From NCBI GenBank assembly GCA_013152415.1, contig JAADGI010000019.1:130000-193999 (forward strand): a stretch of DNA of 64,000 nucleotides. Direction: 5' to 3'. Positions 3,903 to 52,074 of this stretch are shown piece after piece. The notes under the pieces were generated by a model that was not told the origin of the DNA, did not search any database, and saw nothing but the letters and a program-made list of their open reading frames with translations. Positions within the stretch are counted from its first letter, which is position 1, and every line of letters starts with the position of its first letter. A program made the translations under genes and the position numbers. The stretch comes from Gammaproteobacteria bacterium. Lineage in GTDB: Bacteria; Pseudomonadota; Gammaproteobacteria; HyVt-429.

Positions 3903-4331
3903 TGTAGCTCCTTACGGGTTAGTAGCCTCCTGTCACGCTGGACAGTAAGACAAGGAGTGTTGATCACCCAGCTATGCGGTGACCAAGAGAGCGCCGGAGT
4001 CTAAAGGAAAATGGCCCCACTGGAAAGCCGGAGGACAAACTAAATGGGGGTTAACCAAGGGCAGCGGGGGCTGTCGCCAATGCACCATGGAGAGGCTTGG
4101 TCTCACCCCAGGCCAAACGACCAATCACCCAGACGGCGTCACCGCTGAGGCATCACGCCTCTCCCGAAAACGCCCACGGAGAGGTCTGTGAATCACAGGT
4201 CCCTGCCAGGGAGGGTCTTGCCAATAGACGTTCGCCTGAGCGTTGCCACAACAGATGATCCATATCACTGAAACTCGAAGTGATCATGGTACTTTCCGGG
4301 ACTGGCTTTCCCTACTACCCTGTCTTTTTTG

Positions 4332-4347
4332 CTAGACTCAAGTCTAG
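4332..4347. promoter_or_regulatory. 7-2-7 inverted repeat CTAGACT-CA-AGTCTAG at the head of the RiPP-like operon
   Basis: Perfect 7-bp arms read directly. It lies in the only sizeable plus-strand intergenic region upstream of the peptidase-like/HprK-like/PqqD/rSAM genes. The track ORF at 4329 begins with TTG inside this repeat, so the real start is probably downstream. Confidence 0.3.
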
Positions 4348-4370
4348 TACAAGCCGTTTCAGCCTTGATT

Positions 4371-4832
4371 ATGACCCCCTTTCAAGCACCAAGCCCATCT
4401 CGCCACACCACGACACGGAATTGCAATGTGGTGACAGGATTACGGGAAATGGCCCGTCGGCGGGCCCTGTGGATGGATGTAACAGGGGATTGTATGGCAC
4501 CACAGCTCAATGCCAACCAGCAGGTCTGCGTCATCAACCGCCGCCTCTATTGGCCTGGTGATGTGGTGGCCTTTCGGGCCTGGGACGGCCAACTTCTGGT
4601 CCATCGGGTGTTGGGATATCGATTTAAAGGGGGCCACCCGGAACTGGTCACCTGCGCCGACCGTGCCAGCAAAAATGATGTACCGATCCAACTCGACCAA
4701 GTCATCGGTAAAGTGGTCGATGTAGCCCCTCCCAGCGACTTGCTCCCAATTTCCTTCTCATGCCGGGTCCGGGCAATCATTCGCTATTACCAACTGGCCT
4801 GGCGACAGATCAAGATACGTCTGAAAACATGA
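4371..4832 (+). CDS. signal-peptidase (S26/S24)-like protein with Cys/His in place of the Ser/Lys dyad
   Basis: VTGDCMAPQL aligns to the SPase I box B (SGSMxPTL) with Ser to Cys. LLVHRVLGY aligns to box D (VKRVIG) with Lys to His. The start is uncertain: ATG candidates are at 4371 and 4449. The stop overlaps the start of the next gene (ATGA). Confidence 0.5.
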   Translation: MTPFQAPSPSRHTTTRNCNVVTGLREMARRRALWMDVTGDCMAPQLNANQQVCVINRRLYWPGDVVAFRAWDGQLLVHRVLGYRFKGGHPELVTCADRASKNDVPIQLDQVIGKVVDVAPPSDLLPISFSCRVRAIIRYYQLAWRQIKIRLKT

Positions 4833-5746
4833 GCTTTGCCGATCGTTTTGTCCTGGATTCAGATCAATTTACCCCATCCTCACCGGGCCAAGCCTTTGGC
4901 AATCATCGGCTGGTGATTGATTTTGCCGGGGGCCCCTACGGATTTGATGGTCTGAGTGCGACACAAACGGATCGCATACGGGAACGCTTCCAAGACCTGT
5001 GTAGTGAGGACACATCCCGGCAAGTCAAAGTAAACACCCTTCTGTATCGCACACAAAACCGGTCTTTCCCTGACTTTGATCTCGACAATTGGGAATACAC
5101 TCTCGATTTTGAATACAAAGAGGCGTCTGTGGGTATTGCCGGCCTAAAATTCTTTGCCTACTTCGACCTCAGGCAGGGCAAGCAAAGCCATCTGTGGACT
5201 TCGACCGAAGATGATGATTATTTTACAGGTGTTTTCGAAAATTACTTTCGTGTAGTGGTGGCCTATCGACTATTAGCCTGTGGCGGAGTCTTGCTACACA
5301 GCGCCGGGGTAATCGATGAGGGCAATGCATACCTATTCTTCGGACCTTCTAACGCCGGCAAGACGACTGTTTCTCGTTTGAGCCAAGACAGTGGCCACAG
5401 TGTCTTGAGTGATGACATCAATGCCTTGCTGGCCGGACCCGCCCAGGATGTAGTCGCTGAAAAAATGCCATTTGCCGGTGAATTAGGTCAAACGGCAACA
5501 CCCAGTGGCACCTATCCGGTGCGCGGCCTGTTTCGACTCCACCAGGGGCCACGCAATGCTGTACGTGATATGCGTCCAAGCGAGGGTATCGCTGCCCTAG
5601 TGGCATGCTCACCTTATGTCAACGCCGACCCCGTCCGCCAGGACAGGTTGTTCGAGAACCTGGAGCACCTGAGCACCATTACGCCGGTACGTCATTTAAC
5701 TTTCTCCCTAGACCAACCTCTTTGGCCTTTACTCACAGGCCACTAA
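4829..5746 (+). CDS. HPr kinase-related P-loop protein (HprK-like C-terminal domain)
   Basis: HSAGVIDEGNAYLFFGPSNAGKTTVSRL...VLSDDINAL shows a GxxxxGKT P-loop followed by an SDD motif, as in the HprK/P C-domain. It is translationally coupled to the preceding ORF. Confidence 0.6.
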   Translation: MSFADRFVLDSDQFTPSSPGQAFGNHRLVIDFAGGPYGFDGLSATQTDRIRERFQDLCSEDTSRQVKVNTLLYRTQNRSFPDFDLDNWEYTLDFEYKEASVGIAGLKFFAYFDLRQGKQSHLWTSTEDDDYFTGVFENYFRVVVAYRLLACGGVLLHSAGVIDEGNAYLFFGPSNAGKTTVSRLSQDSGHSVLSDDINALLAGPAQDVVAEKMPFAGELGQTATPSGTYPVRGLFRLHQGPRNAVRDMRPSEGIAALVACSPYVNADPVRQDRLFENLEHLSTITPVRHLTFSLDQPLWPLLTGH

Positions 5747-5758
5747 AATGAGAGTAAC

Positions 5759-6067
5759 GTGACCCATCTATCCACTGTCTACAAACCGAGAAAGGATGTT
5801 CGCTACCGCATTGTTGCCGATGAGGCTGTGGTTGTACGCCAACAATCAACAGAGGTGCTTGTCCTTAACGAGGTCGCCGCACGTATATTACAGCTTCTGG
5901 ACGCACAGACTACGGTTAATGAATTGATCCATGCATTGGAAGCGGAGTTTGATATCGGCCCATCTCAACTTGAACACGATGTCATGGCTTTCATCAAGGA
6001 ACTTTTGAATGCCGGAGTAATTATGCCGGCAACATCCAACACGCCAAAAAGTAGCGATGAACTTTAA
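5759..6067 (+). CDS. PqqD-family protein (RiPP recognition element)
   Basis: 102 aa. YRIVADEAVVV...LNEVAARILQLLDAQTTVNELIHALEAEFDIGPSQLEHDVMAFIKELLNAGVI matches the PqqD/RRE pattern. Confidence 0.75.
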   Translation: MTHLSTVYKPRKDVRYRIVADEAVVVRQQSTEVLVLNEVAARILQLLDAQTTVNELIHALEAEFDIGPSQLEHDVMAFIKELLNAGVIMPATSNTPKSSDEL

Positions 6068-6085
6068 TGTAGCGGCAAACTCACC

Positions 6086-6364
6086 ATGAATATCACGCCA
6101 TCGACTCTGTTGAAAAAAAAATCCGACATCAGGCACCGAACTATTGATAATGAAGGCATTATCATGTGCCAGAATTCGGCAGACATTATCGCGGTAAATG
6201 CGGTTGGCAGCCGCATACTTGAACTCATAGACGGGCACAAAACTATTGACGACTGTCTGGCCATACTTGTTAACGAGTTTGACGTTGAGCCGTTGCAACT
6301 GCAACAGGACTGCCTGGATTTTATTTTAGACCTGATGCAAAACGATATTCTGGAATTGGCCTGA
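6086..6364 (+). CDS. PqqD-family protein (second tandem RRE)
   Basis: 92 aa. HRTIDNEGII...VNAVGSRILELIDGHKTIDDCLAILVNEFDVEPLQLQQDCLDFILDLMQNDIL is a paralogue of the preceding ORF. Confidence 0.75.
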   Translation: MNITPSTLLKKKSDIRHRTIDNEGIIMCQNSADIIAVNAVGSRILELIDGHKTIDDCLAILVNEFDVEPLQLQQDCLDFILDLMQNDILELA

Positions 6365-6387
6365 GTACAACCCAAAAACCTGACGCA

Positions 6388-7515
6388 ATGCCTACGCTAC
6401 TAGAAAAACTCAAGTCCAAGGCTGTGGCCAATAACCAGCTTCTTTCTGTAACCCTGGAACTCACCTATCGCTGCAATCTGGATTGTTTTATCTGCTATAA
6501 CGATCGTGACACCCAGGGCCAACTATTATCTTTAAAGCAATACAGGTCATTATTATTGTCGCTACAGAAAATGCAGGTGATGTTTCTCACCCTGACCGGC
6601 GGCGAACCCATGCTCCACCCGGAATTTTGGCCTATTGCTCAATATGCCCATGACCTGGGGTTTGTTGTGCGCCTTAAAACCAACGGTCACGCCCTTAACG
6701 ACAAACTGGCACTGAAGTTGAGAGAAGAAGTTGACCCGTCCATGGTGGATATCAGCATCCATGGTGCCAGTGCCGATACGCACGATAGGCAAACCAAGGT
6801 CCCAGGCAGTTTCACAAGACTGATGAGAAATCTTGAGATTCTGAATGGCTACGGGGTGAAGGTAAATTTGATGATGACCATAAGCCAATGGAATTTCTCT
6901 GAATTGGAAAGAATCCAGTCTCTAGCGGACTCATTGGGATTTCACTTGGATGCCTCTTCCACCATTACACCACGAGACAACGGGGATCGCATGCCCCAGT
7001 CCATTTCAATATCGTCTGAACAGACACGCCAATTGATAAGCCCGCAAACGGATCGTCTGGGTACGCAGGCCGTTCATTTTGACAACAATAGCCAACCTGT
7101 TTCAGGCACCCTGAACAAAGAAAATACTGCTGCTACAAAAGCAGACGAGCCGCCTGTTAACAAGCAATGTGGCTCAGGCTCATCTATTCTGGTCATTGAT
7201 CCCTATGGCCACGTTTACCCTTGCATGCAACTGCGCCGATTACTGGGAAATATTCACCATCAATCAATTGAAGAAATCTGGAGCCATTCACCGTCCCTCA
7301 AGGAAGTGCGAGACCTGTCCGCTGCGGCCAAACAATTGGTGGATTCATATGGAGAGGGATCAGAATACCTGGGCTACTGCATGGGATTGGCTGAACTGGC
7401 AACTGGTGATCCGGTTAAGATCTACCCACAAGCACAGCAACACTTCGAACTCACCCGAAAACTGCAGCGAGAAAGAATCCTCAAAAAACTGAGTCGATCA
7501 GTAACCCTTCGCTAG
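6388..7515 (+). CDS. radical SAM / SPASM-domain peptide-maturase-like enzyme
   Basis: CNLDCFIC is a CX3CX2C radical SAM motif near the N-terminus. GGEPMLHPEF is a SAM-binding motif. The C-terminal Cys-rich region (CGSGSS...YPCMQL...GYCMG) is typical of SPASM auxiliary clusters. Confidence 0.85.
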   Translation: MPTLLEKLKSKAVANNQLLSVTLELTYRCNLDCFICYNDRDTQGQLLSLKQYRSLLLSLQKMQVMFLTLTGGEPMLHPEFWPIAQYAHDLGFVVRLKTNGHALNDKLALKLREEVDPSMVDISIHGASADTHDRQTKVPGSFTRLMRNLEILNGYGVKVNLMMTISQWNFSELERIQSLADSLGFHLDASSTITPRDNGDRMPQSISISSEQTRQLISPQTDRLGTQAVHFDNNSQPVSGTLNKENTAATKADEPPVNKQCGSGSSILVIDPYGHVYPCMQLRRLLGNIHHQSIEEIWSHSPSLKEVRDLSAAAKQLVDSYGEGSEYLGYCMGLAELATGDPVKIYPQAQQHFELTRKLQRERILKKLSRSVTLR

Positions 7516-7538: not shown

Positions 7539-7715
7539 TCAAGAACCCTGGATGATAGTACACATCCCAATAGGGGTTCCTATGGATTTGCCTGGGGTAC
7601 AGACCGCCGCCACCACTTCCAGGTGTTCCCTGGAGATAATCGCAGGCTTTTCATAGACACGTTTGACAGACCTGCAATCATCTGCTGATTTTTTTTCGGT
7701 CTTCCCGGTTTTCAT
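7539..7715 (-). CDS. candidate small Cys/Thr/Gly-rich peptide (possible RiPP precursor), 58 aa
   Basis: Hand-translated minus-strand ORF, too short for the track: MKTGKTEKKSADDCRSVKRVYEKPAIISREHLEVVAAVCTPGKSIGTPIGMCTIIQGS. It has a Lys-rich N-terminus, a YEKPxI motif and three Cys. It lies 43 bp downstream of the C25-like gene and converges on the radical SAM gene. There is no strong RBS. Confidence 0.25.
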   Translation of the reverse strand: MKTGKTEKKSADDCRSVKRVYEKPAIISREHLEVVAAVCTPGKSIGTPIGMCTIIQGS

Positions 7716-7758: not shown

Positions 7759-10700
7759 CTAGTGACGTAGCGTGAGCCCTGGATCCCCTAACAAAATATA
7801 GATTTTTGGAATGTAGGCAAAACTTCCAGTTCTTGCTCGATACTCTCCTAAACTCTGCACAATGGCCTCACCCAGAGTTTCCGTACCGGTGTCAAAAACC
7901 GCCTGGAAGAGCTCCTGGTTTAAGCGCAATGCCTCACTGTCCAAAGATTGCCCTGACGGCGCCCAAACCGCGATCGCACCGCCCCCACTACGCAACACCA
8001 AGTCTTCACCGAGGGCATTGAATCCTGGGATCTCAAAACGTCCTACTGAACACGTCAGGGCACTGACTATCGGGTAGAGGTCATTTACCAAGGTGGGCAC
8101 ATCGCTGGACATCAACAGGGCATTTAATCGATCCAGGCCACCGTGGCCACGATAATTGAGCCAACTGGTCCCCTGTGCCAAACCATCAAAAAGGCGGTTT
8201 CGGGCCTGGTCTATAGGCAAACTGTCGGAAAGATATATCTTATCAACGCTGATATTTTGCGGTAGCAAGGTCAACAGTGCATTGCTGTCCACGGCAAACT
8301 CTCCTGCACTTTGATCTCGCTTGTCGGCAAGCATCGTCACGCTCGAGAGGGTTGTGCTGGCCTCGTAGCGCTTAATCTTATCGATGACGACAGCGAGCTC
8401 CCCCGCATTAAGTACAGGTATACGCCCGATAGCAAATTCGGGCACACCGTCGTCACCTACAACATCTGCATAGGCATTATCGGAGGCCATAATGCCACCG
8501 AAGGGTGTTGCCACCAGCAACGGTGGTAACAAATTTCCACCTACCTGCCAATGATCAAGATAATCAAAGGTGCCATCACCCACCAACACTACGAATCGAG
8601 GCACACCGGACCAAGCGTGACGGACATACTCCAGCATGGACTTAATCGCCACCGGCGATCTTAAACCGTACCCAAAGGTATTGTAGACGTCTTCCAGCGA
8701 AACCACCTTGCTGCTCAATCCCTGGGCTTGCCTGTAATCGGCCAGTACCTGGGCCCCTGCCATCAGAGATTGTGGGGCGATAAGCAGGTAATCGGCACTA
8801 TTTCGCCGACGCTTCAGATGCGTAGCTTTTTCGGCAACCATGGCGATTGCAGACTTGGCTGCGGTATTGGCGACAACAAAATATTCCGCAGTCGGCGACG
8901 AGGGCCGAAAGCTGACTTGATAAGCTGTACCCGCCTGCTGAACCCGAACACCCTTAATGCGTTTAGGCCTGTTTGGGCGCGAAATATCCAGCACAAAGAT
9001 ATTGGTGTCTGAAAAGCCCGTCACCGTGATCACCTCGTTACCATCACCGCGTAACAGAAGTTGATTGTTGAGCGCCCGATAACTACGGTGATAATTCAAT
9101 TCCAAACTGTCAAGATAGACATAACTGTAGGCGACGCCTGTATCCAGCAAACCACCCAGCTCAATACTGTTGTCCCCTTCTTGCAGCAAATCCTGACTGA
9201 AACTAAATGTTAGCGTGGCTGCATCGGTGCCCGACAGGTAGCCGTCCCCCACCCGCTGGCCATTGACATCCACTTTGATGTGGTGATCAAGTTCAACTTT
9301 TGCGTCGTTACTGTAACCTTGAAGATTGACATTTAAGCTCACTTCGTCCGTTACACTGGCAAGCTCAGCGGCCTGAATGGTAAATACCTTGCTTGCGGCC
9401 CCGGCAATAATCACGTCCCAATGCCAGAAGTCACCCGCAGGATCGGTAGCGGTCACGGTGACCGGAACCACGTCCTGTTCGGCCTGAACCCGACTCAAAA
9501 AACTCTGCCCATCGGGTGCAGGGCCTGTCCTCCTGCCTTTCCTGGAATGCACCTGTTTGCCCTTGCCGCGAGACAACCAATAGACATTCTCATCGGTAAA
9601 ATTACTTTCCAGCGCCTCGGCATAGAAATAGAGCCCGGTGTTAGCTCGGGCCTTGATATAGGCCACAGATTTACCCCGGTTAGTGAGCCTTATCCGCCTG
9701 TGCTTTAATAACTTCCGGAACTGAGCGGACCCAAGCCCCAGCAAATCAGCAGCTTGTGCAGCATCCACGTAGTAAAGGCCCGCCTCTTTAACTGTGATCT
9801 TTACCCGTCCCCGACCTCGGTCCCGGTTTCGATGCTTTTCCTTCTTCAGTTTTGCGTGCCTTTTGGCAAGCTTGCTCTTGTCCAGGCGCTTGAGTTGCTT
9901 TGGGGATATCTCTTGGGCGTGGTGCGCATATTTCTTGCCCATCCGCTTGGCCCGCTTGTAGCCAGACGGCTTATCTGACACATAGCCCTCGCCATCCACG
10001 GTGACTGTAAATGGCCCATAGCGATGTTTTTTGCCGGTCGCTTCTACTTCAATCAATTTATAGCGGTATGTTTCTCCCGATACCGCACCTGAATCCATAA
10101 AGACGTAAGATCCTCCCTGCGGGGTATTGAGCAATGCGGGCAATATTTCATCATTGATCCGTTTGTATTTACCGGTATCCGGATCCTTTCGCTTTAAATG
10201 AAATCCCAAGGTCCCTATCTGCGAGGTCGTACGCCATTCAAGCTGTGTCCCACCATCCACAGTTCGCGCCATAAAAGACGCCAGGGAAACATAAGTTGTG
10301 CCACGCGGCTTAAAGGCGCACTCGACTGCTTCATAGTCCCCTGCCCCTCTGCTATTTGAACTGCGACCACCATGTAACGGCCAGCCTTCGGTGCCACTGC
10401 CTGTATCCGTCACCTGAGCAACCGCCACCGTCGGGCCACCGGGGCTGGCGGGTATGATGATTTCCCACAGCCGATTGCGGATGCGGTTGGGACCGGCGTT
10501 ACCGGTCAAACCGTAGAGCGTGGACGTAGCGGTGGCGCTGTTGTAGGCAAAGCTGAGACCTTCCATGTCTGCCGTGGTGCCTCCGCCATCGGCAAACGCG
10601 CCATAATCAACTGGCGCCACCGTGTTGGAACCGGAAGTCCAGTCAACTGCGTAGAGGTTACTGGGACTGCTGATCCAGAAACGGCCATAGCCCGAGGCAT

Positions 10701-11922
10701 TGGGATTTACATTCACCGGATCAATGCCAAGATCATCGGCCCGGGTCAGTCCTGATGAATTGCTGATGGTGATGTAATCAATACCCGCACCGAAGGTATC
10801 CGTTGCCATCTGACCTTCATTGGCACCGGAGGTCTCCACCACAAACAAAATCCGGGAACCCGAATTGCTACCGCTTTCGGGGGTATCAAGGGCAAACATC
10901 AAACCGGTATAAGGGTCAAAGGCCATGGCATCTACATCGGTGACGATACCAGAAGAAGTGCTGCCATCGGAGCCTGAACCAATGGGATTGAGCAACGGAA
11001 AAGTCGCACCCGAGGAGCGGTCAACCCGATAGATCTGGCCGCCGCTGGCGGTATAAAGCGTGCCGTCATCGGGGTCCATGGCCATAGTCTCGGCACCCCT
11101 GACACCATTGGCACCGACTACACAACTGCGACCGGTGTTGATATTGGCATCGGGGTTACCGCCGACACATTCAACCGGATCGGCAGCCGTTGGATTATCA
11201 TCAATGAGGTGGGTATAACGTAATAGATTGTCAGCATCCGAAATCAGATAGCAGATTTGACTCACAGGGGGTGCCAAATAGCCGGCAAATTCGACATGCA
11301 AGCGGGCAGCCTGGGTACGCCTGCCATTATAGGACTCTGCGGTACGCTGGCATGCGCTAGAGGCACAAGCACTACCCGCTTGAATAACAAATGTCATCGC
11401 GTTGCCGGCACTCCAACCACTGCGGTCGACAATTTCCTGGACGATGCTGGTCAGATCAGGGGTCCTTTTGTGCTCATCGTCACTATCGGCGACGTTCCAG
11501 GGACTGATTGACGACCAGGGGACGGTTGCCGAGGTCAGTGTACGACCTGAAATATTGTCGCTGGTGCTGAAGGTGACTGAATTGTCTGTATCTTCGCCGT
11601 TGATCACCACATTGGTGGCACCACTATCATTTTCATCTACGGTAAATTCGATATAGGCACGGGTAATACTTGTACCCTGGGGAACCTGTAAGTCCTGAAA
11701 TCGCATACCAACAAGTTGTTGGGTACTGCCATCAAAGACCAGCTCCAAATCAGAACTGGTGATGTACATGGAACCGGGGGGTGAACCTGAAAATTGCTCT
11801 TCCGCGTCGTCGGTACTCTGACTGACAATACGGTCGAGCTGGACCGCACTGGCAGGGACGCTGAATCCTAGCAGCAGTAAGCTCAGAAAAAACACCCCCC
11901 ATCTGCGGGAGGCCAGGATCAT
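7759..11922 (-). CDS. large secreted peptidase C25 (gingipain/clostripain-fold)-like protein
   Basis: Signal peptide MILASRRWGVFFLSLLLLGFSVPASA, so the start is taken at the internal Met. The C-terminal about 450 aa show NYRGHG (His) followed by SALTCSVGRFE (Cys), the order expected for the C25 His/Cys dyad. A central, extremely basic K/R-rich linker reads KRAKRMGKKYAHH...KLKKEKHRNRDRGRGR. Confidence 0.7.
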   Translation of the reverse strand: MILASRRWGVFFLSLLLLGFSVPASAVQLDRIVSQSTDDAEEQFSGSPPGSMYITSSDLELVFDGSTQQLVGMRFQDLQVPQGTSITRAYIEFTVDENDSGATNVVINGEDTDNSVTFSTSDNISGRTLTSATVPWSSISPWNVADSDDEHKRTPDLTSIVQEIVDRSGWSAGNAMTFVIQAGSACASSACQRTAESYNGRRTQAARLHVEFAGYLAPPVSQICYLISDADNLLRYTHLIDDNPTAADPVECVGGNPDANINTGRSCVVGANGVRGAETMAMDPDDGTLYTASGGQIYRVDRSSGATFPLLNPIGSGSDGSTSSGIVTDVDAMAFDPYTGLMFALDTPESGSNSGSRILFVVETSGANEGQMATDTFGAGIDYITISNSSGLTRADDLGIDPVNVNPNASGYGRFWISSPSNLYAVDWTSGSNTVAPVDYGAFADGGGTTADMEGLSFAYNSATATSTLYGLTGNAGPNRIRNRLWEIIIPASPGGPTVAVAQVTDTGSGTEGWPLHGGRSSNSRGAGDYEAVECAFKPRGTTYVSLASFMARTVDGGTQLEWRTTSQIGTLGFHLKRKDPDTGKYKRINDEILPALLNTPQGGSYVFMDSGAVSGETYRYKLIEVEATGKKHRYGPFTVTVDGEGYVSDKPSGYKRAKRMGKKYAHHAQEISPKQLKRLDKSKLAKRHAKLKKEKHRNRDRGRGRVKITVKEAGLYYVDAAQAADLLGLGSAQFRKLLKHRRIRLTNRGKSVAYIKARANTGLYFYAEALESNFTDENVYWLSRGKGKQVHSRKGRRTGPAPDGQSFLSRVQAEQDVVPVTVTATDPAGDFWHWDVIIAGAASKVFTIQAAELASVTDEVSLNVNLQGYSNDAKVELDHHIKVDVNGQRVGDGYLSGTDAATLTFSFSQDLLQEGDNSIELGGLLDTGVAYSYVYLDSLELNYHRSYRALNNQLLLRGDGNEVITVTGFSDTNIFVLDISRPNRPKRIKGVRVQQAGTAYQVSFRPSSPTAEYFVVANTAAKSAIAMVAEKATHLKRRRNSADYLLIAPQSLMAGAQVLADYRQAQGLSSKVVSLEDVYNTFGYGLRSPVAIKSMLEYVRHAWSGVPRFVVLVGDGTFDYLDHWQVGGNLLPPLLVATPFGGIMASDNAYADVVGDDGVPEFAIGRIPVLNAGELAVVIDKIKRYEASTTLSSVTMLADKRDQSAGEFAVDSNALLTLLPQNISVDKIYLSDSLPIDQARNRLFDGLAQGTSWLNYRGHGGLDRLNALLMSSDVPTLVNDLYPIVSALTCSVGRFEIPGFNALGEDLVLRSGGGAIAVWAPSGQSLDSEALRLNQELFQAVFDTGTETLGEAIVQSLGEYRARTGSFAYIPKIYILLGDPGLTLRH

Positions 11923-12566
11923 GCGGGGTGTCTGTTTTAATGAAAAACACGAAAACAAGACGGAGAGCGGTTGCAAAATACCCAACCCAGAGGAAAGATT
12001 CAGATCACGTGGGAACGGTAGGCTATTTTTCATGGTCATACCCCGATATTGGCTCGGCGGTCCCTGCGACCAAGTGCATGGTGCATCAAAATCAGGAAGT
12101 TCGCATTATCAAGGTGCCGCGTATGTGTGCCTGCCTGGTCTACCGGACCCTTGCTGCGGCAAACATTGCACCCTCAGATAATAGCGAAAAACCCACTAAT
12201 AATATGGTATTACTGCCCTGACTTAAACCAAAGTATAACCCAAACTGGCGCTGTTCCCCAGTCTTCCTGGGCCATGGTTTAGAGGGGGCTTGAATCTGTG
12301 CCCGGGCCATCAATGTAGACACAAAACCTGCACCGCTGCTTCCTTATCGACTGAAAATGGGAAATCTTTAAGCCAGGACTCACTCCCTGGGCCCAAGCCC
12401 AACCATATCAAAACCCATGACACACTGGGTCCTTTATGGATAAACTCTCCCCCCCATTGGCCCGAATGGGCACAGAGGTGTGAGACTATGTTTTGCGCGT
12501 ACCCTCAAATCCGGGAAAGGGCATTTCGCCAGATCAAATCAGCTTAGCTTGTGACGATAAATCAGT

Positions 12567-13709
12567 TTGACCCCTCTACCCGTTTACTTAGACATACTCT
12601 CTGGCCATCTGGCTTCTGAAGACTATAACCTGCCCAGGCACTGGCATGAGCACGATTGGCAGCGTTACCTGGACCTGGCTCAAAACCATGGTGTATTACC
12701 CCTTGTCCAGGACCGATTATTAAACGCAAACCATACCGTACAATCCCCACCTTCCATAAGGTCTGCCATTGAACAAGGCCTAAAAAACCAGGCCATCCTG
12801 GAAATTCTGCAAACACTGGAACTACAACGTGTTTTAGGTGCATTTAATAAAAACAACACCCCGGTCCTGGTGTTTAAGGGGGGTGCCCTTGCCCACAGCC
12901 ACTATCCCGAGGCCAAACTACGCCCCCGGGATGATACTGACCTGTTAATTGGGCAATCAAATCGTGAACAATCTGCAGAAATTCTTGAGGTACTTGGCTA
13001 TAGCGCCCAAAACACCATTAGTGGACGTCGCATCATGCACCAGTGTAACTATAGCTATACCGATCAGCAGGGCTGTCCCCATGTGGTCGACTTACACTGG
13101 CGCCTGAGTAATCCGACTGCGTTTTCTGAGCTGTTGGATTTTGAGAGTCTGTGGCAACGCTCGGTGCTGATTCCAGTTCTTGGCCAAGGTGCACGGTGTC
13201 CGACCCAAGTCGATGCGCTATTGATTGCATGCATCCATCGTCTCGCCCATCACCACAATAATCATCGATTGATCTGGCTGATGGACATTCACCTGCTGCT
13301 AACGGCTCTCAGCAAGTCGGAGTCATTGGAATTTGCCCGACGGGCACGAGAGATCGGCGTAGCAGCCATTTGTACGCAGGGGCTAAAACTCAGCCGGGAC
13401 TATTTTAACACCAAGCTCTCTCCCGCCCTGCTCAAAATACTGTCCCAAACCGAAGCCACGAAGGTAAGTAAGGCAGAGAGCCATACCCGTAAATACCTTA
13501 ACAAAGATAGAAGCCACTGGGATAACTACATAGATGACTTGCGTGCGCTACCACACTGGCGGGCCCGAGTGGCTTATCTTCACGAGACCTTGTTCCCGGA
13601 TGCAGATTACTTGCTCGGTCGCTACAATACCCGCCACCGAATCTTACTGCCCATACTGTATCTGTATCGCCTGCTACGTGGCTTTCTCAGGCTACTGCAA
13701 AAACGCTAG
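12567..13709 (+). CDS. uncharacterised nucleotidyltransferase-family protein (PF14907-like)
   Basis: 380 aa with a TTG start. The N-terminal region (LDLAQNHGVLPLVQDRL) and central NTase-like segment (VLVFKGGALAHSHYPEAKLRPRDDTDLLI) resemble the family that co-occurs with PqqD/radical SAM/HprK-like cassettes. It is divergent from the C25-like gene. Confidence 0.6.
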   Translation: MTPLPVYLDILSGHLASEDYNLPRHWHEHDWQRYLDLAQNHGVLPLVQDRLLNANHTVQSPPSIRSAIEQGLKNQAILEILQTLELQRVLGAFNKNNTPVLVFKGGALAHSHYPEAKLRPRDDTDLLIGQSNREQSAEILEVLGYSAQNTISGRRIMHQCNYSYTDQQGCPHVVDLHWRLSNPTAFSELLDFESLWQRSVLIPVLGQGARCPTQVDALLIACIHRLAHHHNNHRLIWLMDIHLLLTALSKSESLEFARRAREIGVAAICTQGLKLSRDYFNTKLSPALLKILSQTEATKVSKAESHTRKYLNKDRSHWDNYIDDLRALPHWRARVAYLHETLFPDADYLLGRYNTRHRILLPILYLYRLLRGFLRLLQKR

Positions 13710-13747: not shown

Positions 13748-14566
13748 CTAATAGCCTTGAGATTCAGGGTCGAGATTCAGATCGTAACTATCAAGCCGCT
13801 CTACCCGAGTCTCGATCCTGCCATCGGGAAAAAGATCCAGTCGGCGATAACCGGGAGGTGCGGTATCCACCGTAAAATCGCTACTGAGAGGTTTAAACTG
13901 AAAACAGGTGGACGGTGAGCTGAGTAACTGCACACCATTGCGTTGTTGGGCCAACTTCTGATGCACATGCCCCCAAACGACTGCCTTCACTTGTGGGTGC
14001 CGATCTAATACTGCAAACAAGGCATCACTATTGTTAAGCCCGATGGGCTCCATCCAATCACTACCCATAGTGACAGGGTGATGGTGCAAACACACCAAGG
14101 CATGCTTGTCGGGAAATTCAGTCAACCACTCCTCTAACTTCTTCAGTTCCGCTTCACCTAATTCACCATGTACATGGTCAGAAACGGTGCTGTCCAACAA
14201 AATAATCTGCCAAAACCCCAATTCGATACGCTTATCGGCACTCACCTGACCCCCGGTCAGGGTATCTTGCATCATGGTAAGGTTGTCGTGATTGCCTGGA
14301 ATCCAGTAGGTCGGCACCTTCAGAGACGCAAAATTGCTTTGCAATCTCCTGTAAGTCTCTTTGCCCCCGTCTTGGGCCAAATCACCCGTGGCCAACACCA
14401 CATCCGGCGGCCATTCATCTTCTTGCGCCCAACCGAGGACGGTCTCAAAGCTTTTCTGAGTGTCCACCCCCATCAGTGTTTGATGGGGCGCTTCGAATAG
14501 GTGAAAATCCGAGATCTGCAGGACGCGGATGGGCCCATCCACGGTATCAGATTTTTTGAAGTCCAT
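13748..14566 (-). CDS. cpdA: 3',5'-cyclic-nucleotide phosphodiesterase (metallophosphoesterase)
   Basis: IRVLQISDFHLF, GDLAQDG, GNHD and VWGHVHQ are calcineurin-like metal-binding motifs. The length of 272 aa fits CpdA. Confidence 0.85.
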   Translation of the reverse strand: MDFKKSDTVDGPIRVLQISDFHLFEAPHQTLMGVDTQKSFETVLGWAQEDEWPPDVVLATGDLAQDGGKETYRRLQSNFASLKVPTYWIPGNHDNLTMMQDTLTGGQVSADKRIELGFWQIILLDSTVSDHVHGELGEAELKKLEEWLTEFPDKHALVCLHHHPVTMGSDWMEPIGLNNSDALFAVLDRHPQVKAVVWGHVHQKLAQQRNGVQLLSSPSTCFQFKPLSSDFTVDTAPPGYRRLDLFPDGRIETRVERLDSYDLNLDPESQGY

Positions 14567-14751: not shown

Positions 14752-15615
14752 ATGATAGGCTCAAACGCACCGATAACAGTATCCAATGACAGCCAAGTCA
14801 ATGGCAGCCAGGGGATCCAGCAAAACCGTGTCAATGCAGGCACTGACGCTGGTGAAACCCCGTTTTCCAATGTCTTCAGCCAGCAATTAAACATGTTCCG
14901 GCTCGGCCAGATGTCGGCCTTGCAGAATATGATGACCCCCTCGATGATGACCGCAGGGGGGCAAGGACTTGCCAACTTTGGCCAATTCTTGCCGGGCATG
15001 TACGGTGCTAACCCACCGTCGCCGGTCACCATAATCAATTACAATTTCTTCAACCTGTCGGAGTCTCTTGGCAGTCCAGAGCAGGCGGATTTGGCACAGC
15101 TCCTGAAGTCCGTGGATCTTAACCAACTCACTGCCGAACCCGGTGTGGATTCGGTTACCGGCCTGAGCAGCGAGCCCCCAGAACTGGCACCTCTGTCATC
15201 CCTACCAACTGCACAAACAGGCAGCGTTAGCATTCCCACAACTCCGGAAGAATTGGGTGGAAAGCTGGCGGAGCGCCTGGCTGCACTGGCGCGGGGTGGT
15301 GATACCGAAATCAAGGCCACAATCGACCATGATGTCTATGGCCCCATCAGCGTAGATGTATCGATACAGGACAACCGGATCACCCTGAATCTATCCACCG
15401 AAGATGCGGGCCTGCGTGCTGCCCTGGAAGCGGCCACAGAGAGCCTCAATAAAAACGTCGCCAGTCAAGGTCTGACACTTGCAGGCTTTACAGTAAACGG
15501 GCTCACCAGCACCGTCGGCAGTGGTGGGACAAGCAGCAATCAGGCTGTGGCCAGCCTGTACAGCTCAATCAATGCCGCATCTTCACCCTTGGATCTAATC
15601 AATAGCACCTCTTAG
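14752..15615 (+). CDS. FliK-like (hook-length control, Flg_hook C-terminal domain) protein
   Basis: The C-terminal EELGGKLAERLAALARGGDTEIKATIDHDVYGPISVDVSIQDNRITLNLSTEDAGLRAALEAATESLNKNVASQGLTLAGFTV matches the FliK/YscP C-domain pattern. The N-terminus is low-complexity and Gln/Pro-rich. No other flagellar genes lie nearby. Confidence 0.45.
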   Translation: MIGSNAPITVSNDSQVNGSQGIQQNRVNAGTDAGETPFSNVFSQQLNMFRLGQMSALQNMMTPSMMTAGGQGLANFGQFLPGMYGANPPSPVTIINYNFFNLSESLGSPEQADLAQLLKSVDLNQLTAEPGVDSVTGLSSEPPELAPLSSLPTAQTGSVSIPTTPEELGGKLAERLAALARGGDTEIKATIDHDVYGPISVDVSIQDNRITLNLSTEDAGLRAALEAATESLNKNVASQGLTLAGFTVNGLTSTVGSGGTSSNQAVASLYSSINAASSPLDLINSTS

Positions 15616-15682
15616 GTACCGCCCAAGCTGCCAGGAATAGGTAGGTGCGTATCAACGCCGGGCATTAAAGCCCGGCCTGATG

Positions 15683-17728
15683 TTAACGACCAAGCTGGGC
15701 CTTGTTGTGCCAATAATTTGAGGTCTTGGCATCCTTGGGCAGGCCATAGAGTCCGTCATGATAGGCTTGTGCCATAAACTCCTGGGCCTTACTGAACCCC
15801 GCCTCGGCTGCCTGCCTGACCAAACTCACCCCACGACGTGCATCACCCACCACACCTCTTCCTTCCACGTAGAGCAGAGCAAGATTATACAGTGCGGTTA
15901 AATGCCCCTGGTCTGCGGCACGCCGATACCATATGGATGCCAAACGATCGTTGCGCTCTACACCCCAACCACTTTCGTAGAGAAAACCCATGTTGTATTG
16001 GGCGCTGGCGAGCCCACCCTCGGCCAAGGGCTGCCACAGGGCCACCGCCTGATCATAGCGTCCCGCATTAAAGGCATTTTGCCCATCGCGAAGTAGTTTT
16101 CGTTGCAGGGCGTTGCCTGATTTGAGCTTTGTTGCTTTGCTCTTGGGTTTACCTTTTTCAACCACTAATTTCTTATCGGGCTGGACAGCCGGTTCTTTTT
16201 TCTTTTTCTTGGGTGTTGCGGATGTGGGTGCTTTGATAGATTGCTCACGTTTCTTGATGGCAAGGTGCACGGTCTTAAAAGACCGAATCCACGGTTTTCT
16301 ATCACGCAAGGACTGTGGCAATCCATCTCGAGCCTGTTTTGCCACCTGCAAAGTCTCAAAAGAACCGTATAAAAGAGAAAACCAGGGGCGTCCTTCGTGA
16401 CGTGACTCGAAATAAGCCAGTGGTGAACCAAGCGACTTGTTGACAACAAAGTCTTTCACCGAGCTTAACCTACGATCGGCAAAAATTTGTATCGTATAGT
16501 GCCTTGGATTACGCTTGAGCAACCAGGCCTCGTCGAGCAACTTCTCTCCTTCTGCAATAACCGACCCCTCATCTTCGTCACCTCTAACAAGCGGTGGTGG
16601 CGAAACGGGCTTCTCGGGCACTCTGGGTACTTGAATAGACGACTGCTTCGGCACTACTTTTTCCACCTTGGCGACGACGGGTTTGGTGGGTTCCTTGGAT
16701 TGGGGTGCAGATGGCGTCACTGGTTTCTTCTTAACACCCACAACAGGCTTAGCCTCAACAGAGCCACGCGCCATCAAGTCTTGCACCTCTGCAAATCGAC
16801 GTATCCACGCCCCCATAACTCTCAATTTTGGCGATAGCCCCTTAAGTGCCCGGTCGGCCTCTGCAAGTGTGGGATAAACCCCCTGAATCAGACTAAACCA
16901 GGGCTTACCCTGGTGCAGAACTTTAAAAAGGGCCACATCCCTTTTTAAATCATGCTCTTTAATGAAGGTCAAAATCGAGGCCTCAGTCCAATTGGCAAAG
17001 AGCTGGATGGTATAGTGGCCTGAATTCTGGACTGCAATCCAATCCCCACGGTGGATAGTGAATTTAGCCTGCTGCCCTGACTTCCCATCCCCGACAAGTT
17101 TGTGTTTCGCAATTACTTGCGGCTTTGCCTGGGTGATTTTTTGGGCCTGGGTGGTTTTTTTGGATGCTGAAGTCTTGCCAGCCAACTTTAAACGTTTTTC
17201 GGTGGACTTTAAGGCCTGAATCGCAGCCTTGTCACCTGTTTCAGCAGCCAGAACAAACCAATGCCGGGCTTGCTCCAGACTCATCTTGACGCCACGGCCA
17301 TAGAAATAAAGTGTCCCAAGATTATATTGGGCCTGGGCAAAGCCCTGCTCGGCGGCCTTCGTCCACCAACTCGCCGCAGTGGCTATATTCTTCTTAACTC
17401 CACGCCCAGCTTCGTACAACACACCTAGATTGAACTGGGCCGGTGGATAACCCTGCCCGGCAGCCTGTTCATATAATTTCGCGGCCTTGGAGTAGTCGCG
17501 CTTTACACTCTGGCCTTCTGCGTATAACACCCCCAGATTAAACTGGGCTGCAGCCTCACCCTTTTCTGCCAAGGGCTGCCATAACTTTTTGGCAGTTTTA
17601 AAATCCCCTTTTTGGTAGGCCATAACAGCATCTGCAAATCCATCGGCGTATAGGGGCGCCGCCAAATACACACCGATCAGCCAGATGATCAGGCCGAAGC
17701 TTCCTGTTTTTTTGATCATATCAAACAC
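15683..17728 (-). CDS. Sel1-repeat and SPOR-domain protein
   Basis: Sel1 repeats lie at both ends (AQFNLGVLYAEGQSVKRDYSKAAKLYEQAA..., AQYNMGFLYESGWGVERN...). Two internal SPOR-like domains are present (HYTIQLFANW...WIRRF and HYTIQIFADR...WIRSF). There is an N-terminal signal/TM segment and Lys/Pro-rich linkers. Confidence 0.75.
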   Translation of the reverse strand: MFDMIKKTGSFGLIIWLIGVYLAAPLYADGFADAVMAYQKGDFKTAKKLWQPLAEKGEAAAQFNLGVLYAEGQSVKRDYSKAAKLYEQAAGQGYPPAQFNLGVLYEAGRGVKKNIATAASWWTKAAEQGFAQAQYNLGTLYFYGRGVKMSLEQARHWFVLAAETGDKAAIQALKSTEKRLKLAGKTSASKKTTQAQKITQAKPQVIAKHKLVGDGKSGQQAKFTIHRGDWIAVQNSGHYTIQLFANWTEASILTFIKEHDLKRDVALFKVLHQGKPWFSLIQGVYPTLAEADRALKGLSPKLRVMGAWIRRFAEVQDLMARGSVEAKPVVGVKKKPVTPSAPQSKEPTKPVVAKVEKVVPKQSSIQVPRVPEKPVSPPPLVRGDEDEGSVIAEGEKLLDEAWLLKRNPRHYTIQIFADRRLSSVKDFVVNKSLGSPLAYFESRHEGRPWFSLLYGSFETLQVAKQARDGLPQSLRDRKPWIRSFKTVHLAIKKREQSIKAPTSATPKKKKKEPAVQPDKKLVVEKGKPKSKATKLKSGNALQRKLLRDGQNAFNAGRYDQAVALWQPLAEGGLASAQYNMGFLYESGWGVERNDRLASIWYRRAADQGHLTALYNLALLYVEGRGVVGDARRGVSLVRQAAEAGFSKAQEFMAQAYHDGLYGLPKDAKTSNYWHNKAQLGR

Positions 17729-43568: not shown

Positions 43569-43819
43569 TTCTGCACCGGTTTCTACGGTAGAAGCACCGG
43601 ATACCGGTCAGGTCCTTCCTGACTATAAGATGCGCGGTGAGGTTCCGAACTCCGTGGCTCTGGCTGTATAGATGTTCGGATCACTACGCCTCAATCACCG
43701 ATCCACTGCTTAACACTAAATAGCATATTTTTATGTACGCCGTTACCTGGTCCTGCTCATCTGGGCAATCATTCTACAACCGCAGACTCAGATCTTCCCC
43801 ACCCACATCGGCCTTGTGA

Positions 43820-46936: not shown

Positions 46937-47257
46937 GTAGAGACGGCCACCCTCGACTCGTGATTGTTTGCTCGTCACCAGGTCCACTGCCCCAAGTGCC
47001 CAGCCTTATATCTCAGTCTTTGCTTACAGGCCATCCTGATGGCTGACCATCAATTACAAACGGCAGCAGCAAATCTACGTGAATAAGCTCAAGCCCTTTA
47101 TGTTGAGCCTTCGCCACAAAGAAATAGAATTCACAGGGAAAATATGTCTTATCATCATCTGCTCTACAAACAAACAGGGAAGAGCCCTTCTGTCCATTCA
47201 CCAACACGACTTTTGAAATTCACCCTAGACACCAAATGATAAATTTCTTATTCAGCT

Positions 47258-52047: not shown

Positions 52048-52074
52048 TAAATGTATTCCAGTCAGGAGAATTTT

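Follow-up and report, generated by a model that had tools for sequence, protein, structure and literature searches.

A PorU-like C25 peptidase gene paired with a precursor-peptide gene in a modified-peptide cassette of a gammaproteobacterium

NisP/LanP, the secreted leader peptidases of lanthipeptide clusters, occur in only some of these clusters, and NisP is a subtilisin-fold serine protease. In the linear polyphosphorylated peptide (LPP) clusters of Bacillota (Popov et al., Nat Commun 2026, PMC13381572), the leader is cleaved by a SipW-like peptidase in dependence on the recognition protein. PorU acts as a sortase that removes C-terminal domains, with attachment of anionic LPS (PMC4804311). 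Here we describe a gene for a large PorU-like C25 peptidase in the window, i.e., the whole 64,000-nucleotide stretch of DNA analysed, whose neighbours are peptide-maturation genes and not por genes:

4329-4832, plus strand: S24/SipW-type (archaeal-type signal peptidase I-like) peptidase (Pfam S24, 4e-5; motif alignment)
4829-5746, plus strand: HprK-like/ScmC-like P-loop protein (Walker A GPSNAGKT; weak PEPCK_ATP and ScmC matches)
5759-6067 and 6086-6364, plus strand: two PqqD-type RiPP recognition element genes (PF05402, 3e-17 and 1e-11)
6388-7515, plus strand: radical SAM/SPASM enzyme (PF04055, PF13186), convergent on the precursor gene
7539-7715, minus strand: 58-aa precursor peptide MKTGKTEKKSADDCRSVKRVYEKPAIISREHLEVVAAVCTPGKSIGTPIGMCTIIQGS (open reading frame), 43 nt beyond the stop of the C25 gene and in its orientation
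7542-7607, minus strand: predicted core AVCTPGKSIGTPIGMCTIIQGS of the precursor, its cleavage site inferred
7759-11922, minus strand: C25 (PorU/gingipain-family) cysteine peptidase, 1387 aa (open reading frame and translation, PF01364)
12567-13709, plus strand: PF14907 nucleotidyltransferase (PF14907, 1e-48), divergent from the C25 gene

The sequence-only reading had recognized a C25-like peptidase with a caspase-like fold and a His-Cys dyad in its C-terminal domain, and all three points are borne out. The PF01364 profile matched aa 1045-1385 over its entire length (1-374) with 245.8 bits (cut-off 23; E 1.1e-72), while the AF2 model of the C-terminal module has a pLDDT of 92.9 and was aligned by Foldseek with RgpB (E 1e-18, TM 0.66, rmsd 3.4 A) and PorU (E 1e-30). 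The dyad, His1260 (nt 8143-8145) and Cys1291 (nt 8050-8052), aligns with the catalytic His211/Cys244 of RgpB and the GHG and TC motifs of PorU. It is invariant in eight full-length homologues. Of the 33 module homologues whose sequence spans both columns, 32 keep it, and the exception, P0137, looks frameshifted; the Cys column is Ser in one further member, P0148. Judged by these alignments and the model, the protein looks like a real, catalytically competent C25 peptidase with a caspase-like fold. It is extremely improbable that its C25 fold has degenerated and that it serves as a non-catalytic adhesin: the large beta-rich binding modules would suit such a role, but retention of the dyad in nearly all homologues, aligned with the catalytic residues of RgpB and PorU, the full-length Pfam match and the confident model of the catalytic domain speak against it.

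By profile and predicted fold, the nearest relative is the sortase-like PorU rather than the gingipains, so that the earlier label of a gingipain-like protein holds for the C25 family but not for the closest kin. PorU, the type IX secretion (T9SS) sortase of Porphyromonas gingivalis (PDB 6za2, NF033707), is the best profile match (E 2.6e-30, against 1e-17 for the gingipains, with which sequence identity is about 20%) and also the best fold match (792 aligned columns). Among the NCBIfam models, PorU and PorU2 alone match the protein, and the NF033707 score of 210.7 bits lies below the cut-off of 420 for PorU membership. Peptidases of this kind had been called uncommon outside Bacteroidetes, which the searches contradict: at E<=1e-30, the 693-aa C-terminal module matches 4,805 representatives of 50% clusters, spread over many phyla, and the 112 confirmed matches in GTDB species genomes are almost all outside Bacteroidota. 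The best 150 of the 4,805 representatives are 596-3335 aa long, and most are matched right up to their C-terminus.

The open reading frame from the first ATG (7759-12039, minus strand) encodes 1426 aa, and the NCBI record GXP09_08160, identical to the gene product, is called at 1424 aa. We prefer the ATG at 11922, in frame with and downstream of the one at 12039, as the start, since the proteins of five of the seven other full-length homologues (P0004-P0008) open just before their own hydrophobic segment. The resulting 1387-aa product opens with MILASRRWGVFFLSLLLLGFSVPASA, the n-region of which holds an SRRW pair. Of the Sec signal peptide proposed from the sequence, a signal-peptide-like N-terminus stands, both in the sequence and by its homologues, and from it the protein is read as an exported multidomain cysteine peptidase. 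The order of its parts is CBM-like beta-sandwich, propeller-like region, Ig/FN3-like domain, flexible basic linker, PorU-like beta-sandwiches and caspase-fold C25 domain:

11845-11922, minus strand: signal-peptide-like N-terminus (aa 1-26; sequence reading, with comparable hydrophobic segments opening five of the seven full-length homologues)
11209-11844, minus strand: beta-sandwich "DDAEE" module (aa 27-238; AF2 pLDDT about 80-95)
10315-11127, minus strand: beta-propeller-like middle region (aa ~266-536; all-beta in AF2, moderate confidence)
10000-10335, minus strand: Ig/FN3-like domain (aa ~530-641; AF2 beta-sandwich, pLDDT 75-93)
9805-9957, minus strand: polybasic linker (aa 656-706; composition; predicted disordered with one low-confidence helix)
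8803-9804, minus strand: PorU-like beta-sandwich domains (aa 707-1040; AF2 pLDDT >90), N-terminal to the catalytic domain
7768-8790, minus strand: C25 catalytic domain (aa 1045-1385; Pfam, alignments, AF2 and Foldseek)

The N-terminal half is beta-rich in the AF2 model, as had been predicted. Its first module found no Pfam family in the profile search and aligned by Foldseek with the chondroitin-sulfate CBM 8wab (TM 0.61) and the alginate CBM 7vbo (TM 0.49). This likeness to CBMs for anionic glycans gives the module a polysaccharide context, and the module is also found in hundreds of unrelated giant proteins. The middle region, whose Foldseek matches are generic WD40/propeller folds, is kept only in the seven other full-length homologues. 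The Ig/FN3-like domain stands directly upstream of the C25 module in 73 of 78 genome loci (tblastn), and aa 773-1190 are matched by the N-terminal models of NCBIfam PorU and PorU2.

A stretch of some 50 residues with more than 50% Lys/Arg/His had been noticed and is indeed present, with K/R/H at 26 of 51 residues (51%), K+R at 43% and D+E at 8%. K/R/H make up 10.7% of the whole protein and 23.5% of the 51-aa window that ranks next (binomial P about 1e-12, or about 1e-9 corrected for all windows). The AF2 pLDDT of the linker is 26-41 over most of its length and about 60 in the helix; in the C-terminal model, values under 50 are confined to no more than its opening part, where the first nine residues have them. 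Over the family, the median K/R/H content is 19%; the extreme basicity is lineage-specific and does not follow the presence of the cassette. The suggestion that the linker is a cluster of processing sites for an Arg/Lys-specific enzyme is without support, because the Arg-pocket Asp163 of RgpB aligns with Ala1210.

Among the accompanying genes, the S24/SipW-type peptidase likely starts at ATG 4449, carries a Cys at the nucleophile position (GDCMAP) and scores 33.6 bits with TIGR02228, under its cut-off. The HprK-like protein has an orthologue in a close relative that is called PF27840 ScmC, and its homologues start with MSFxxxF. The best NCBIfam matches of the PqqD genes include lasso-peptide and HPr-rel-A PqqD chaperones, while the radical SAM/SPASM enzyme stays under the thresholds of all named NCBIfam maturases, with MftC giving the highest score (121 bits against 265). 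The 58-aa precursor gene, absent from the earlier reading of the region and annotated by NCBI as hypothetical GXP09_08155, was found by ORF analysis; its position is consistent with a two-gene operon with the C25 gene. Its core has two conserved Cys, a conserved Lys and a conserved C-terminal Ser. A profile HMM of the precursor family matches the window peptide (E 7e-14) and picks up relatives at 43 distinct C25 loci. Of the idea that the whole 4.3-13.7 kb block was acquired together, the part that the block belongs together is supported by conserved neighbourhoods in other phyla, but comparison of GC and codon usage with the flanks revealed no compositional island and no sign of recent acquisition, and the C25 gene (GC 0.529, GC3 0.556) resembles flanking core genes.

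The neighbourhood survey covered 79 distinct loci seeded only with peptide patterns of the C25 module. Radical-SAM/SPASM genes occur in 44 of these, PqqD in 42, HprK-like in 41, S24-like in 33 and PF14907 in 15, and the otherwise uncurated precursor family is present in 43, mostly 0.1-1.7 kb from the C25 gene and on the same strand. By automatic classification, 34 of these 43 have the precursor downstream of C25 and in the same orientation, L045 and L052 being left out only through overlap in ORF calling. The C25 and precursor genes belong to a neighbourhood conserved over at least eight phyla, with PqqD, radical-SAM/SPASM, HprK-like, SipW-type and sometimes PF14907 genes. A close relative (82% identity) is syntenic with the window, and a 37%-identical homologue in unrelated context has kept the cassette. 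The distance matrices of C25 and the radical-SAM enzyme are correlated (Mantel rho 0.49, P<=0.0005). A reciprocal scan seeded with the HprK-like protein gave nine long loci with precursor and C25, two more with C25 in which the precursor was not detected, and at least four fully flanked cassettes without C25. Conversely, there is no cassette within 10 kb at L002-L005, which represent four of seven full-length homologues, nor at about 35 of the 79 C25 loci. The link is frequent and not obligatory in either direction, and we found no description in the literature of a partnership between C25-protease and modified-peptide genes.

Wzc-like and Wza-like genes lie close to the co-directional loci. 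The C25 protein could be secreted as a degradative protease or adhesin in its own right, brought next to the cassette by common surface/exopolysaccharide islands and not by a pathway; this we consider quite unlikely. Many paralogues and homologues without a nearby cassette, the several C25 paralogues per genome in Verrucomicrobiota and the tendency of both gene sets to adjoin polysaccharide export genes would fit it, but not the presence of the precursor in more than half of the loci seeded by C25 only, nor the recurrence of the pairing in three different gene orders over at least eight phyla. Furthermore, C25 and cassette have different nearest relatives in the window lineage, and this joining of two lineages speaks for the pairing having been selected repeatedly.

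The genes of staphostatins lie downstream of those of staphopains, and by this parallel the modified peptide could regulate the C25 enzyme, be it by inhibiting it, by keeping it latent or as a partner that activates it. The tight order of protease and then small gene, which recurs in at least ten loci, the constrained two-Cys core with its conserved Lys and the lack in this family of a gingipain-type prodomain beside the catalytic domain all suit such regulation. It is nevertheless decidedly unlikely, as Sec-exported enzymes fold outside the cytoplasm and cassettes with the precursor but without C25 exist. An inhibitor acting through a Lys loop is without specific support, because the RgpB pocket Asp is replaced by Ala in the window protein.

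The explanation that we favour, tentatively and at slightly less than even confidence, is that the C25 enzyme acts outside the cytoplasm, where the modified peptide, once exported, would be its substrate or its partner. The preceding steps would all be cytoplasmic: the PqqD protein would bind the YxxPx[IL] leader, as the LPP analogy suggests, the radical-SAM enzyme could cross-link the two conserved Cys of the precursor, the HprK-like protein may phosphorylate a Ser, possibly the conserved C-terminal one, and the SipW-like peptidase would cut off the leader at the predicted site VVA/AVC (slash, cleavage). The C25 enzyme could then trim the peptide or, like PorU, attach it to an acceptor on the surface or in exopolysaccharide, while its variable N-terminal binding modules and basic linker may tether it to a polyanionic matrix; in this lineage, the extreme basicity would exaggerate what is generally a basic and disordered tether. 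Several observations weigh against this explanation: the link between C25 and cassette is facultative, no peptide exporter is conserved in these loci, precursors with and without an adjoining C25 gene look alike, C25 and cassette have different nearest relatives in the window lineage, and linker basicity does not follow the cassette. Since the cassette has its own leader peptidase, C25 should not be needed for leader removal. We regard it as unlikely, if worth weighing, that C25 finishes maturation as an extracellular peptidase that takes the leader or a leader stub off the exported peptide. The enzyme appears exported and competent, its gene precedes that of the precursor, it is facultative like LanP, and the activity of the S24-like protein is less certain because Cys replaces the usual Ser nucleophile. 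However, a SipW-like peptidase performs leader cleavage in the related LPP system, the S24-like gene is present in 33 of the 79 loci, no conserved peptide exporter was found in the C25-cassette loci, and very large variable binding modules (proteins of up to 3335 aa) are unexpected in a simple leader peptidase.

Like PorU, the window protein places beta-sandwich domains ahead of a C25 catalytic domain that carries a GHG...C dyad, but at its N-terminus it adds the basic linker together with modules of CBM-like, propeller and Ig-like type, and it terminates at the catalytic domain, without the C-terminal T9SS domain. Its host is a gammaproteobacterium, with relatives in Nitrospirota, Acidobacteriota, Verrucomicrobiota and other phyla. 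With the gingipains RgpB and Kgp (MEROPS C25; PDB 1cvr, 4ief, 4rbm) it shares the Pfam family, the caspase-like fold and the catalytic pair, but it has neither the Arg-pocket Asp of RgpB nor the gingipain prodomain, haemagglutinin domains and T9SS C-terminal domain. NisP/LanP work alike only in being exported, facultative proteases encoded inside a modified-peptide cluster; NisP is unrelated in sequence and fold, far smaller and without variable binding modules. SynChlorMet (ScmC/D/E/F), GeoRSP and HPr-rel-A likewise combine PqqD-like, HprK-/ScmC-like and radical-SAM/SPASM proteins, and we know of no C25 component in their definitions. The window proteins are far under the NCBIfam/TIGRFAM cut-offs for ScmC (23.8 against 125), ScmE (91 against 400) and the GeoRSP radical SAM (88 against 400), and narrowly miss the HPr-rel-A PqqD model (34.2 against 35). 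The LPP clusters share a core of SipW-type leader peptidase, discrete PqqD-type recognition protein, HprK-like kinase and NTP transferase, and their leader YxxPxVLxHQxIxFET/xxS aligns with YEKPAIISREHLEVVA/AVC of the window at every conserved hydrophobic position. LPP clusters lie in capsule loci, and both systems tend to adjoin polysaccharide tyrosine-kinase and export genes. The LPP paper (PMC13381572) makes no mention of radical-SAM enzymes, C25 peptidases or Gram-negative hosts. Unlike the LPP clusters, the window cassette lacks an MsbA-like pump, its core has Cys in place of the phosphorylated Ser3, its peptidase carries Cys at the nucleophile position, and it adds a radical-SAM/SPASM enzyme and a PorU-like C25 gene ahead of the precursor.

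The coupling of a C25 peptidase gene to a radical-SAM-containing peptide system resembling the linear polyphosphorylated peptide (LPP) system is conserved and apparently undescribed; a literature search for C25 or gingipain peptidases linked to radical SAM, PqqD, SPASM or RiPP found nothing, nor anything relevant for SynChlorMet. In the window, the C25 reading frame extends from its first ATG over 7759..12039 on the minus strand (1426 aa; the NCBI record has 1424 aa). We prefer the start at 11922, an internal ATG that yields a protein of 1387 aa with the N-terminus MILASRRWGVFFLSLLLLGFSVPASA and agrees with the coordinates of the sequence-only reading, because a hydrophobic N-terminal segment directly follows the start in five of seven full-length homologues (P0004-P0008) and because an 82%-identical Acidiferrobacteraceae relative conserves the 39 codons upstream far less well than the remainder of the protein. 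Peptidase_C25 (PF01364) matches aa 1045-1385 over its whole profile (1-374/374) with 245.8 bits against a cut-off of 23 (E 1.1e-72), which bears out the earlier assignment to gingipain(C25)-like peptidases. The His-then-Cys dyad proposed for the C-terminal domain was likewise recovered: His1260 (8143-8145) and Cys1291 (8050-8052) align with NYTGH211G and VAC244 of RgpB and with GHG/TC of PorU in a profile search of the PDB, where a search with the single sequence gave no match. Both residues are invariant in eight full-length homologues, and the dyad is kept in 32 of the 33 homologues of the C-terminal module (693 aa) that span these positions; the one without it, P0137, seems to carry a frameshift, and in another member, P0148, the Cys column holds Ser. 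The protein is an exported PorU-like peptidase that appears catalytically competent. In one assembly of the 82%-identical relative (locus L008), the reading frame shifts shortly before the C25 domain ends, so that 78 aa matching PF01364 form an ORF of their own (14173-14409); this is why the homologue P0002 has a truncated C-terminus in alignments.

The AlphaFold2 model of the C-terminal module has a pLDDT of 92.9 and a pTM of 0.91, and its best Foldseek match is whole PorU (6za2, E 1e-30, 792 aligned columns); RgpB is matched with E 1e-18, TM 0.66 and rmsd 3.4 A, Kgp comes next, and separase is among the weaker matches. By these matches to PorU, RgpB and Kgp, the protein has the caspase-like (clan CD) fold that had been expected from the sequence. 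The N-terminal half is modelled with a pLDDT of 70, below that of the C-terminal model, and four parts are discernible, all on the minus strand:

aa 27-238 (11209-11844), beta-sandwich, well predicted
aa ~266-536, propeller-like region
aa ~530-641, Ig/FN3-like domain
aa 656-706 (9805-9957), polybasic stretch, a linker with one weak helix, low model confidence

The first part, a module of ~210 aa that we call DDAEE, matches no Pfam family. It recurs, frequently as tandem copies, in hundreds of giant proteins of unrelated types (PKD, PilY, metallophosphoesterase and Ig-like). Its predicted fold resembles CBMs for anionic polysaccharides (Foldseek TM 0.61 for chondroitin sulfate and 0.49 for alginate), a weak similarity that offers a lead.

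The linker, described earlier as a stretch of about 50 residues with more than 50% Lys/Arg/His, indeed contains 26 such residues among 51, compared with a protein average of 10.7% and 23.5% in the next-highest 51-aa window, a basicity far beyond chance (P ~1e-9 after correction). Among 54 family members, the medians for the segment that joins the Ig-like domain to the module are 48 aa in length, 19% K/R/H and a net charge of +4.5; extreme linkers occur only in the window protein and that of its close relative (44-46% with this delimitation) and in the subfamily carrying the DDAEE module (28-41%), which for the most part has no cassette. Basicity as a cassette-linked trait was rejected, since the full-length homologues from the cassette-free loci L002-L005 are strongly basic too. 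We read the linker as a flexible, basic tether that has become exceptionally basic in the window lineage, and its binding to a polyanion, either exopolysaccharide or polyphosphorylated peptide, is plausible. The suggestion that it is a cluster of processing sites fared less well, as Arg/Lys autoprocessing lacks support: in the profile alignment, Asp163 of RgpB, the acidic S1-pocket residue, corresponds to the residue after the invariant Phe1209, which is Ala1210 here and Ala, Ser or Thr across the family. Judged from this alignment, gingipain-like Arg/Lys specificity is not supported, and the enzyme is probably not an Arg- or Lys-specific gingipain (RgpA/B, Kgp). On the whole, what the sequence-only reading observed was confirmed, and its interpretation was partly supported.

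To our knowledge, C25 peptidases are known almost wholly from the Porphyromonas gingipains and the T9SS sortase PorU. The view that C25-fold peptidases are uncommon outside Bacteroidetes did not hold for metagenomic diversity, in which the module matches 14,640 representatives of 50%-identity clusters at E<=0.001 and 4,805 at E<=1e-30, from many phyla. Each of the best 150 matches spans the module wholly or for the most part, and in general the match is C-terminal, in proteins of 596-3335 aa. When one genome of each GTDB species was scanned for just two peptide patterns, taken from a five-sequence alignment, 112 C25 relatives were confirmed, and 78 loci were kept, from Planctomycetota, Desulfobacterota, Nitrospirota, Acidobacteriota, Verrucomicrobiota/Kiritimatiellia, Chloroflexota and a few Gammaproteobacteria. 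Ahead of the module come an Ig-like domain and a linker, and the N-terminal extensions found in the family vary, with domains of the LamG, FG-GAP, RTX, lectin and GEVED types. Many phyla outside Bacteroidota thus have PorU-like enzymes, which form a large family of mostly uncultured bacteria.

The C25 gene of the window stands between a plus-strand cassette run (4329-7515) and a PF14907 gene, with the following neighbours:

4329-4832, plus strand, S24/SipW-like peptidase from Pfam/NCBIfam searches (4449-4832 from its likely ATG)
4829-5746, plus strand, HprK/ScmC-like P-loop protein, likely ATG 4829
between 5746 and 6388, plus strand, two PqqD genes
6388-7515, plus strand, radical-SAM/SPASM gene
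7539-7715, minus strand, precursor peptide of 58 aa, MKTGKTEKKSADDCRSVKRVYEKPAIISREHLEVVAAVCTPGKSIGTPIGMCTIIQGS, starting 43 nt past the C25 stop on the same strand
12567-13709, plus strand, PF14907 nucleotidyltransferase on the other side of the C25 gene

The most likely start of the HprK-like gene (MSFADRF..., as in homologues) overlaps the S24-like stop by 4 nt (ATGA), which suggests translational coupling of the two genes. The S24/SipW-type peptidase carries GDCMAP, with Cys at the nucleophile position and His and Asp at the expected spacing; its relatives in co-directional loci have GxSMxP, and Cys also occurs in several acidobacterial and Sedimenticola copies. Acidobacterial loci (L036, 15944-17065, minus strand; also L045 and L066) have an additional, divergent paralogue of the HprK-like P-loop protein ~1.5 kb past the S24-like gene. 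Bordering the block of the window, at 14752-17728, are genes for a FliK-like (Flg_hook) protein and a Sel1-repeat/SPOR protein of 681 aa, both syntenic in the close relative.

The cassette region is fully syntenic in the 82%-identical relative. PqqD, radical SAM, ScmC-like and S24 genes also adjoin the C25 gene of a 37%-identical vent-metagenome homologue in an otherwise unrelated context, and four other full-length homologues have no such cassette beside C25. When all ORFs of 79 distinct loci (the 78 genome loci, the homologue loci and the window) were clustered, the radical-SAM family was present in 44 loci, PqqD in 42, the HprK-like family in 41, the S24-like family in 33 and PF14907 in 15. 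In a reciprocal test, metagenome contigs were scanned with an alignment of the HprK-like protein and each locus was scored; cassette, precursor and C25 occurred together in nine long loci, two more had C25 with no precursor detected, and in four loci flanked by the full 10 kb, cassette and precursor stood without C25. The association of C25 with the cassette is thus strong yet facultative in both directions. The C25 and radical-SAM similarity matrices of 40 loci are correlated (Mantel rho 0.49, P<=0.0005), to which shared species phylogeny contributes. The window lineage is discordant, its C25 module being nearest to those of Planctomycetota, Desulfobacterota and Nitrospirota and its radical-SAM enzyme nearest to acidobacterial cassettes, which suggests that the pairing was re-assembled more than once. 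Wzc-like (GNVR + AAA_31) and Wza-like (Poly_export + SLBB) polysaccharide export genes lie ~6 kb downstream of C25 in 17 and 13 co-directional loci, respectively (loci with either type include L015-L017, L024, L033, L059, L062, L074-L077 and L086). A rival explanation is that C25 and the cassette are merely co-located in surface-polymer islands. No transporter was found at 4.3-13.7 kb of the window, and no transporter family is conserved across the loci.

The same clustering exposed conserved small ORFs, and a profile built from them matches in 43 distinct loci. In all subtypes, a basic N-terminus leads into Y-x-x-P-x-[LI], two or three Cys are conserved, and the C-terminus is Gly-Ser, Ser-Ser or, rarely, Gly-Thr. 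The window precursor is annotated by NCBI as a hypothetical protein; the family has no NCBIfam match and only one sub-threshold chance match in Pfam, and a word-indexed homologue search with the window precursor returned the window's own record alone. By automatic classification, 34 of the 43 loci have the precursor downstream of C25 and on its strand (L045 and L052 were left out solely through ORF-calling overlap), directly after C25 in 10 and after PqqD and radical-SAM genes, ~1.4 kb away, in 24. Apparent C25-precursor fusions in L129, L046 and L036 were rejected, the precursor being in another reading frame 20-100 nt past the C25 stop. In a scan of 3.8-13.9 kb, promoter-like sites were at chance level and terminator-like sites only modestly above it (18 vs 10.7, sd 3.5), with none between the C25 stop and the precursor start; the scan as a whole is uninformative. 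About half of the sampled C25 members are physically coupled to this model-less precursor family and its maturation enzymes.

Popov et al. 2026 described the LPP of Bacillota (PMC13381572), in which the leader motif is YxxPxVLxHQxIxFET/xxS (the slash marks the cut), an RRE hands the leader to the peptidase, which cuts after T-1, and a kinase polyphosphorylates Ser3; the clusters lie in capsule loci beside a tyrosine autokinase (PMC13381572). The window leader matches this motif at Y-16, P-13 and the hydrophobic positions -11 (I), -10 (I), -5 (L) and -3 (V), has A at -1, and carries a conserved Cys at position 3 of the predicted core, vs Ser in LPP. From this alignment, cleavage would be predicted at VVA/AVC, releasing a 22-residue core, AVCTPGKSIGTPIGMCTIIQGS.

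The GC content (0.529), GC3 (0.556) and codon usage of the C25 gene are like those of the flanking core genes, so a compositional island at 4.3-13.7 kb was rejected for this gene; within the block, a mild GC deficit (0.45-0.48) is confined to the PqqD and radical-SAM genes. As to the proposal that the whole block was acquired together, conserved neighbourhoods support its being one unit, and composition does not. The Acidiferrobacteraceae relative has the block at the same place, between rpsF-rplI-dnaB and cpdA, thus any acquisition would be older than the split of both lineages. Elsewhere in the window, a clear low-GC block at 49852-59342 on the plus strand (0.38-0.44 vs ~0.53) is an unrelated chemotaxis cluster with genes for CheA, CheB, a NIT-domain MCP and another MCP; horizontal acquisition is more credible for it than for the C25 block. 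At 39663-46987 on the minus strand lie two neighbouring hybrid histidine kinases, each >1000 aa long and equipped with PAS and GAF domains, and an HD-domain response regulator follows (47258-48337).

The C25 gene lies upstream of the precursor gene and is coupled across phyla to the genes for its maturation. By analogy, the precursor would be modified in the cytoplasm under RRE guidance, with Cys cross-linked by the radical-SAM enzyme and a Ser phosphorylated, and the SipW-like peptidase would remove the leader. We propose, with low confidence, that the C25 enzyme is active beyond the cytoplasm, where the exported peptide is its substrate or its partner; it may trim this peptide or else transfer it in a PorU-like manner to a surface or exopolysaccharide acceptor; PorU itself removes C-terminal domains, with attachment to anionic LPS, in the account of it in PMC4804311 that we drew on. 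A rival reading is that C25 is a NisP-like finishing peptidase. The cassette has its own peptidase, and this, together with the facultative association, the lack of an exporter conserved across loci and the likeness of precursors with and without C25, disfavours a strict role of C25 in the pathway; a further rival is that the modified peptide regulates the C25 protease. The boldest form of the PorU-like proposal, which we hold to be improbable, is that C25 is the sortase-type transpeptidase of a new peptide-sorting system in T9SS-less diderms, covalently attaching the radical-SAM-cross-linked, phosphorylated peptide of the LPP-like cassette to an exopolysaccharide, surface glycan or protein acceptor (or using the peptide as the acceptor), while its variable N-terminal glycan-binding modules and basic linker hold it in an anionic matrix. 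The interest lies mainly in the conserved coupling; if functional, it would provide the first biochemical context for non-Bacteroidota C25 enzymes and, with a defined peptide, enzymes and an exported protease, a tractable route to the role of LPP-like peptides, which may be to decorate the surface or the biofilm matrix.

Among known systems, the C25 protein, which comes from a gammaproteobacterial MAG, is a PorU-like C25 peptidase outside T9SS. Its only NCBIfam matches are the PorU equivalog (NF033707, 210.7 bits vs 420) and the N-terminal model of PorU2 (146.6 vs 450), both under the cut-off. The window protein and PorU share beta-sandwich domains ahead of the catalytic domain, whereas PorU extends ~300 residues past the C25 domain and the window protein ends after two (GDPGLTLRH, then the stop). 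With the score under the equivalog cut-off and no C-terminal T9SS sorting domain, PorU proper was rejected. For the cassette, curated cut-offs excluded SynChlorMet (TIGR04248-04251; ScmC 23.8/125, ScmD 34.2/100, ScmE 91.2/400, ScmF 82.8/400 bits/cut-off), the mycofactocin and PQQ maturases (MftC 121.5 vs 265, PqqE 74 vs 381), the sactipeptide maturases (AlbA 71 vs 850, StsB 92.6 vs 625) and the GeoRSP system. The LPP core set of SipW-type peptidase, discrete RRE, HprK-like kinase and NTP transferase is matched by the S24/TIGR02228-like, two PqqD, HprK/ScmC-like and PF14907 genes, the last counted as the LPP NTP transferase, although PMC13381572 does not state that LppN belongs to PF14907, and the Wzc- and Wza-like neighbours echo the capsule-locus context. 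Unlike LPP, the window cassette has a radical-SAM/SPASM enzyme, lacks the MsbA-like export pump, places Cys in the core at the position of the acceptor Ser3 and Cys at the peptidase nucleophile position (GDCMAP vs GxSMxP), and has a PorU-like C25 gene ahead of the precursor; radical-SAM enzymes, cysteine proteases and Gram-negative hosts are not mentioned in the LPP paper (PMC13381572). The cassette is related to the LPP system, with Gram-negative hosts and a radical-SAM enzyme.
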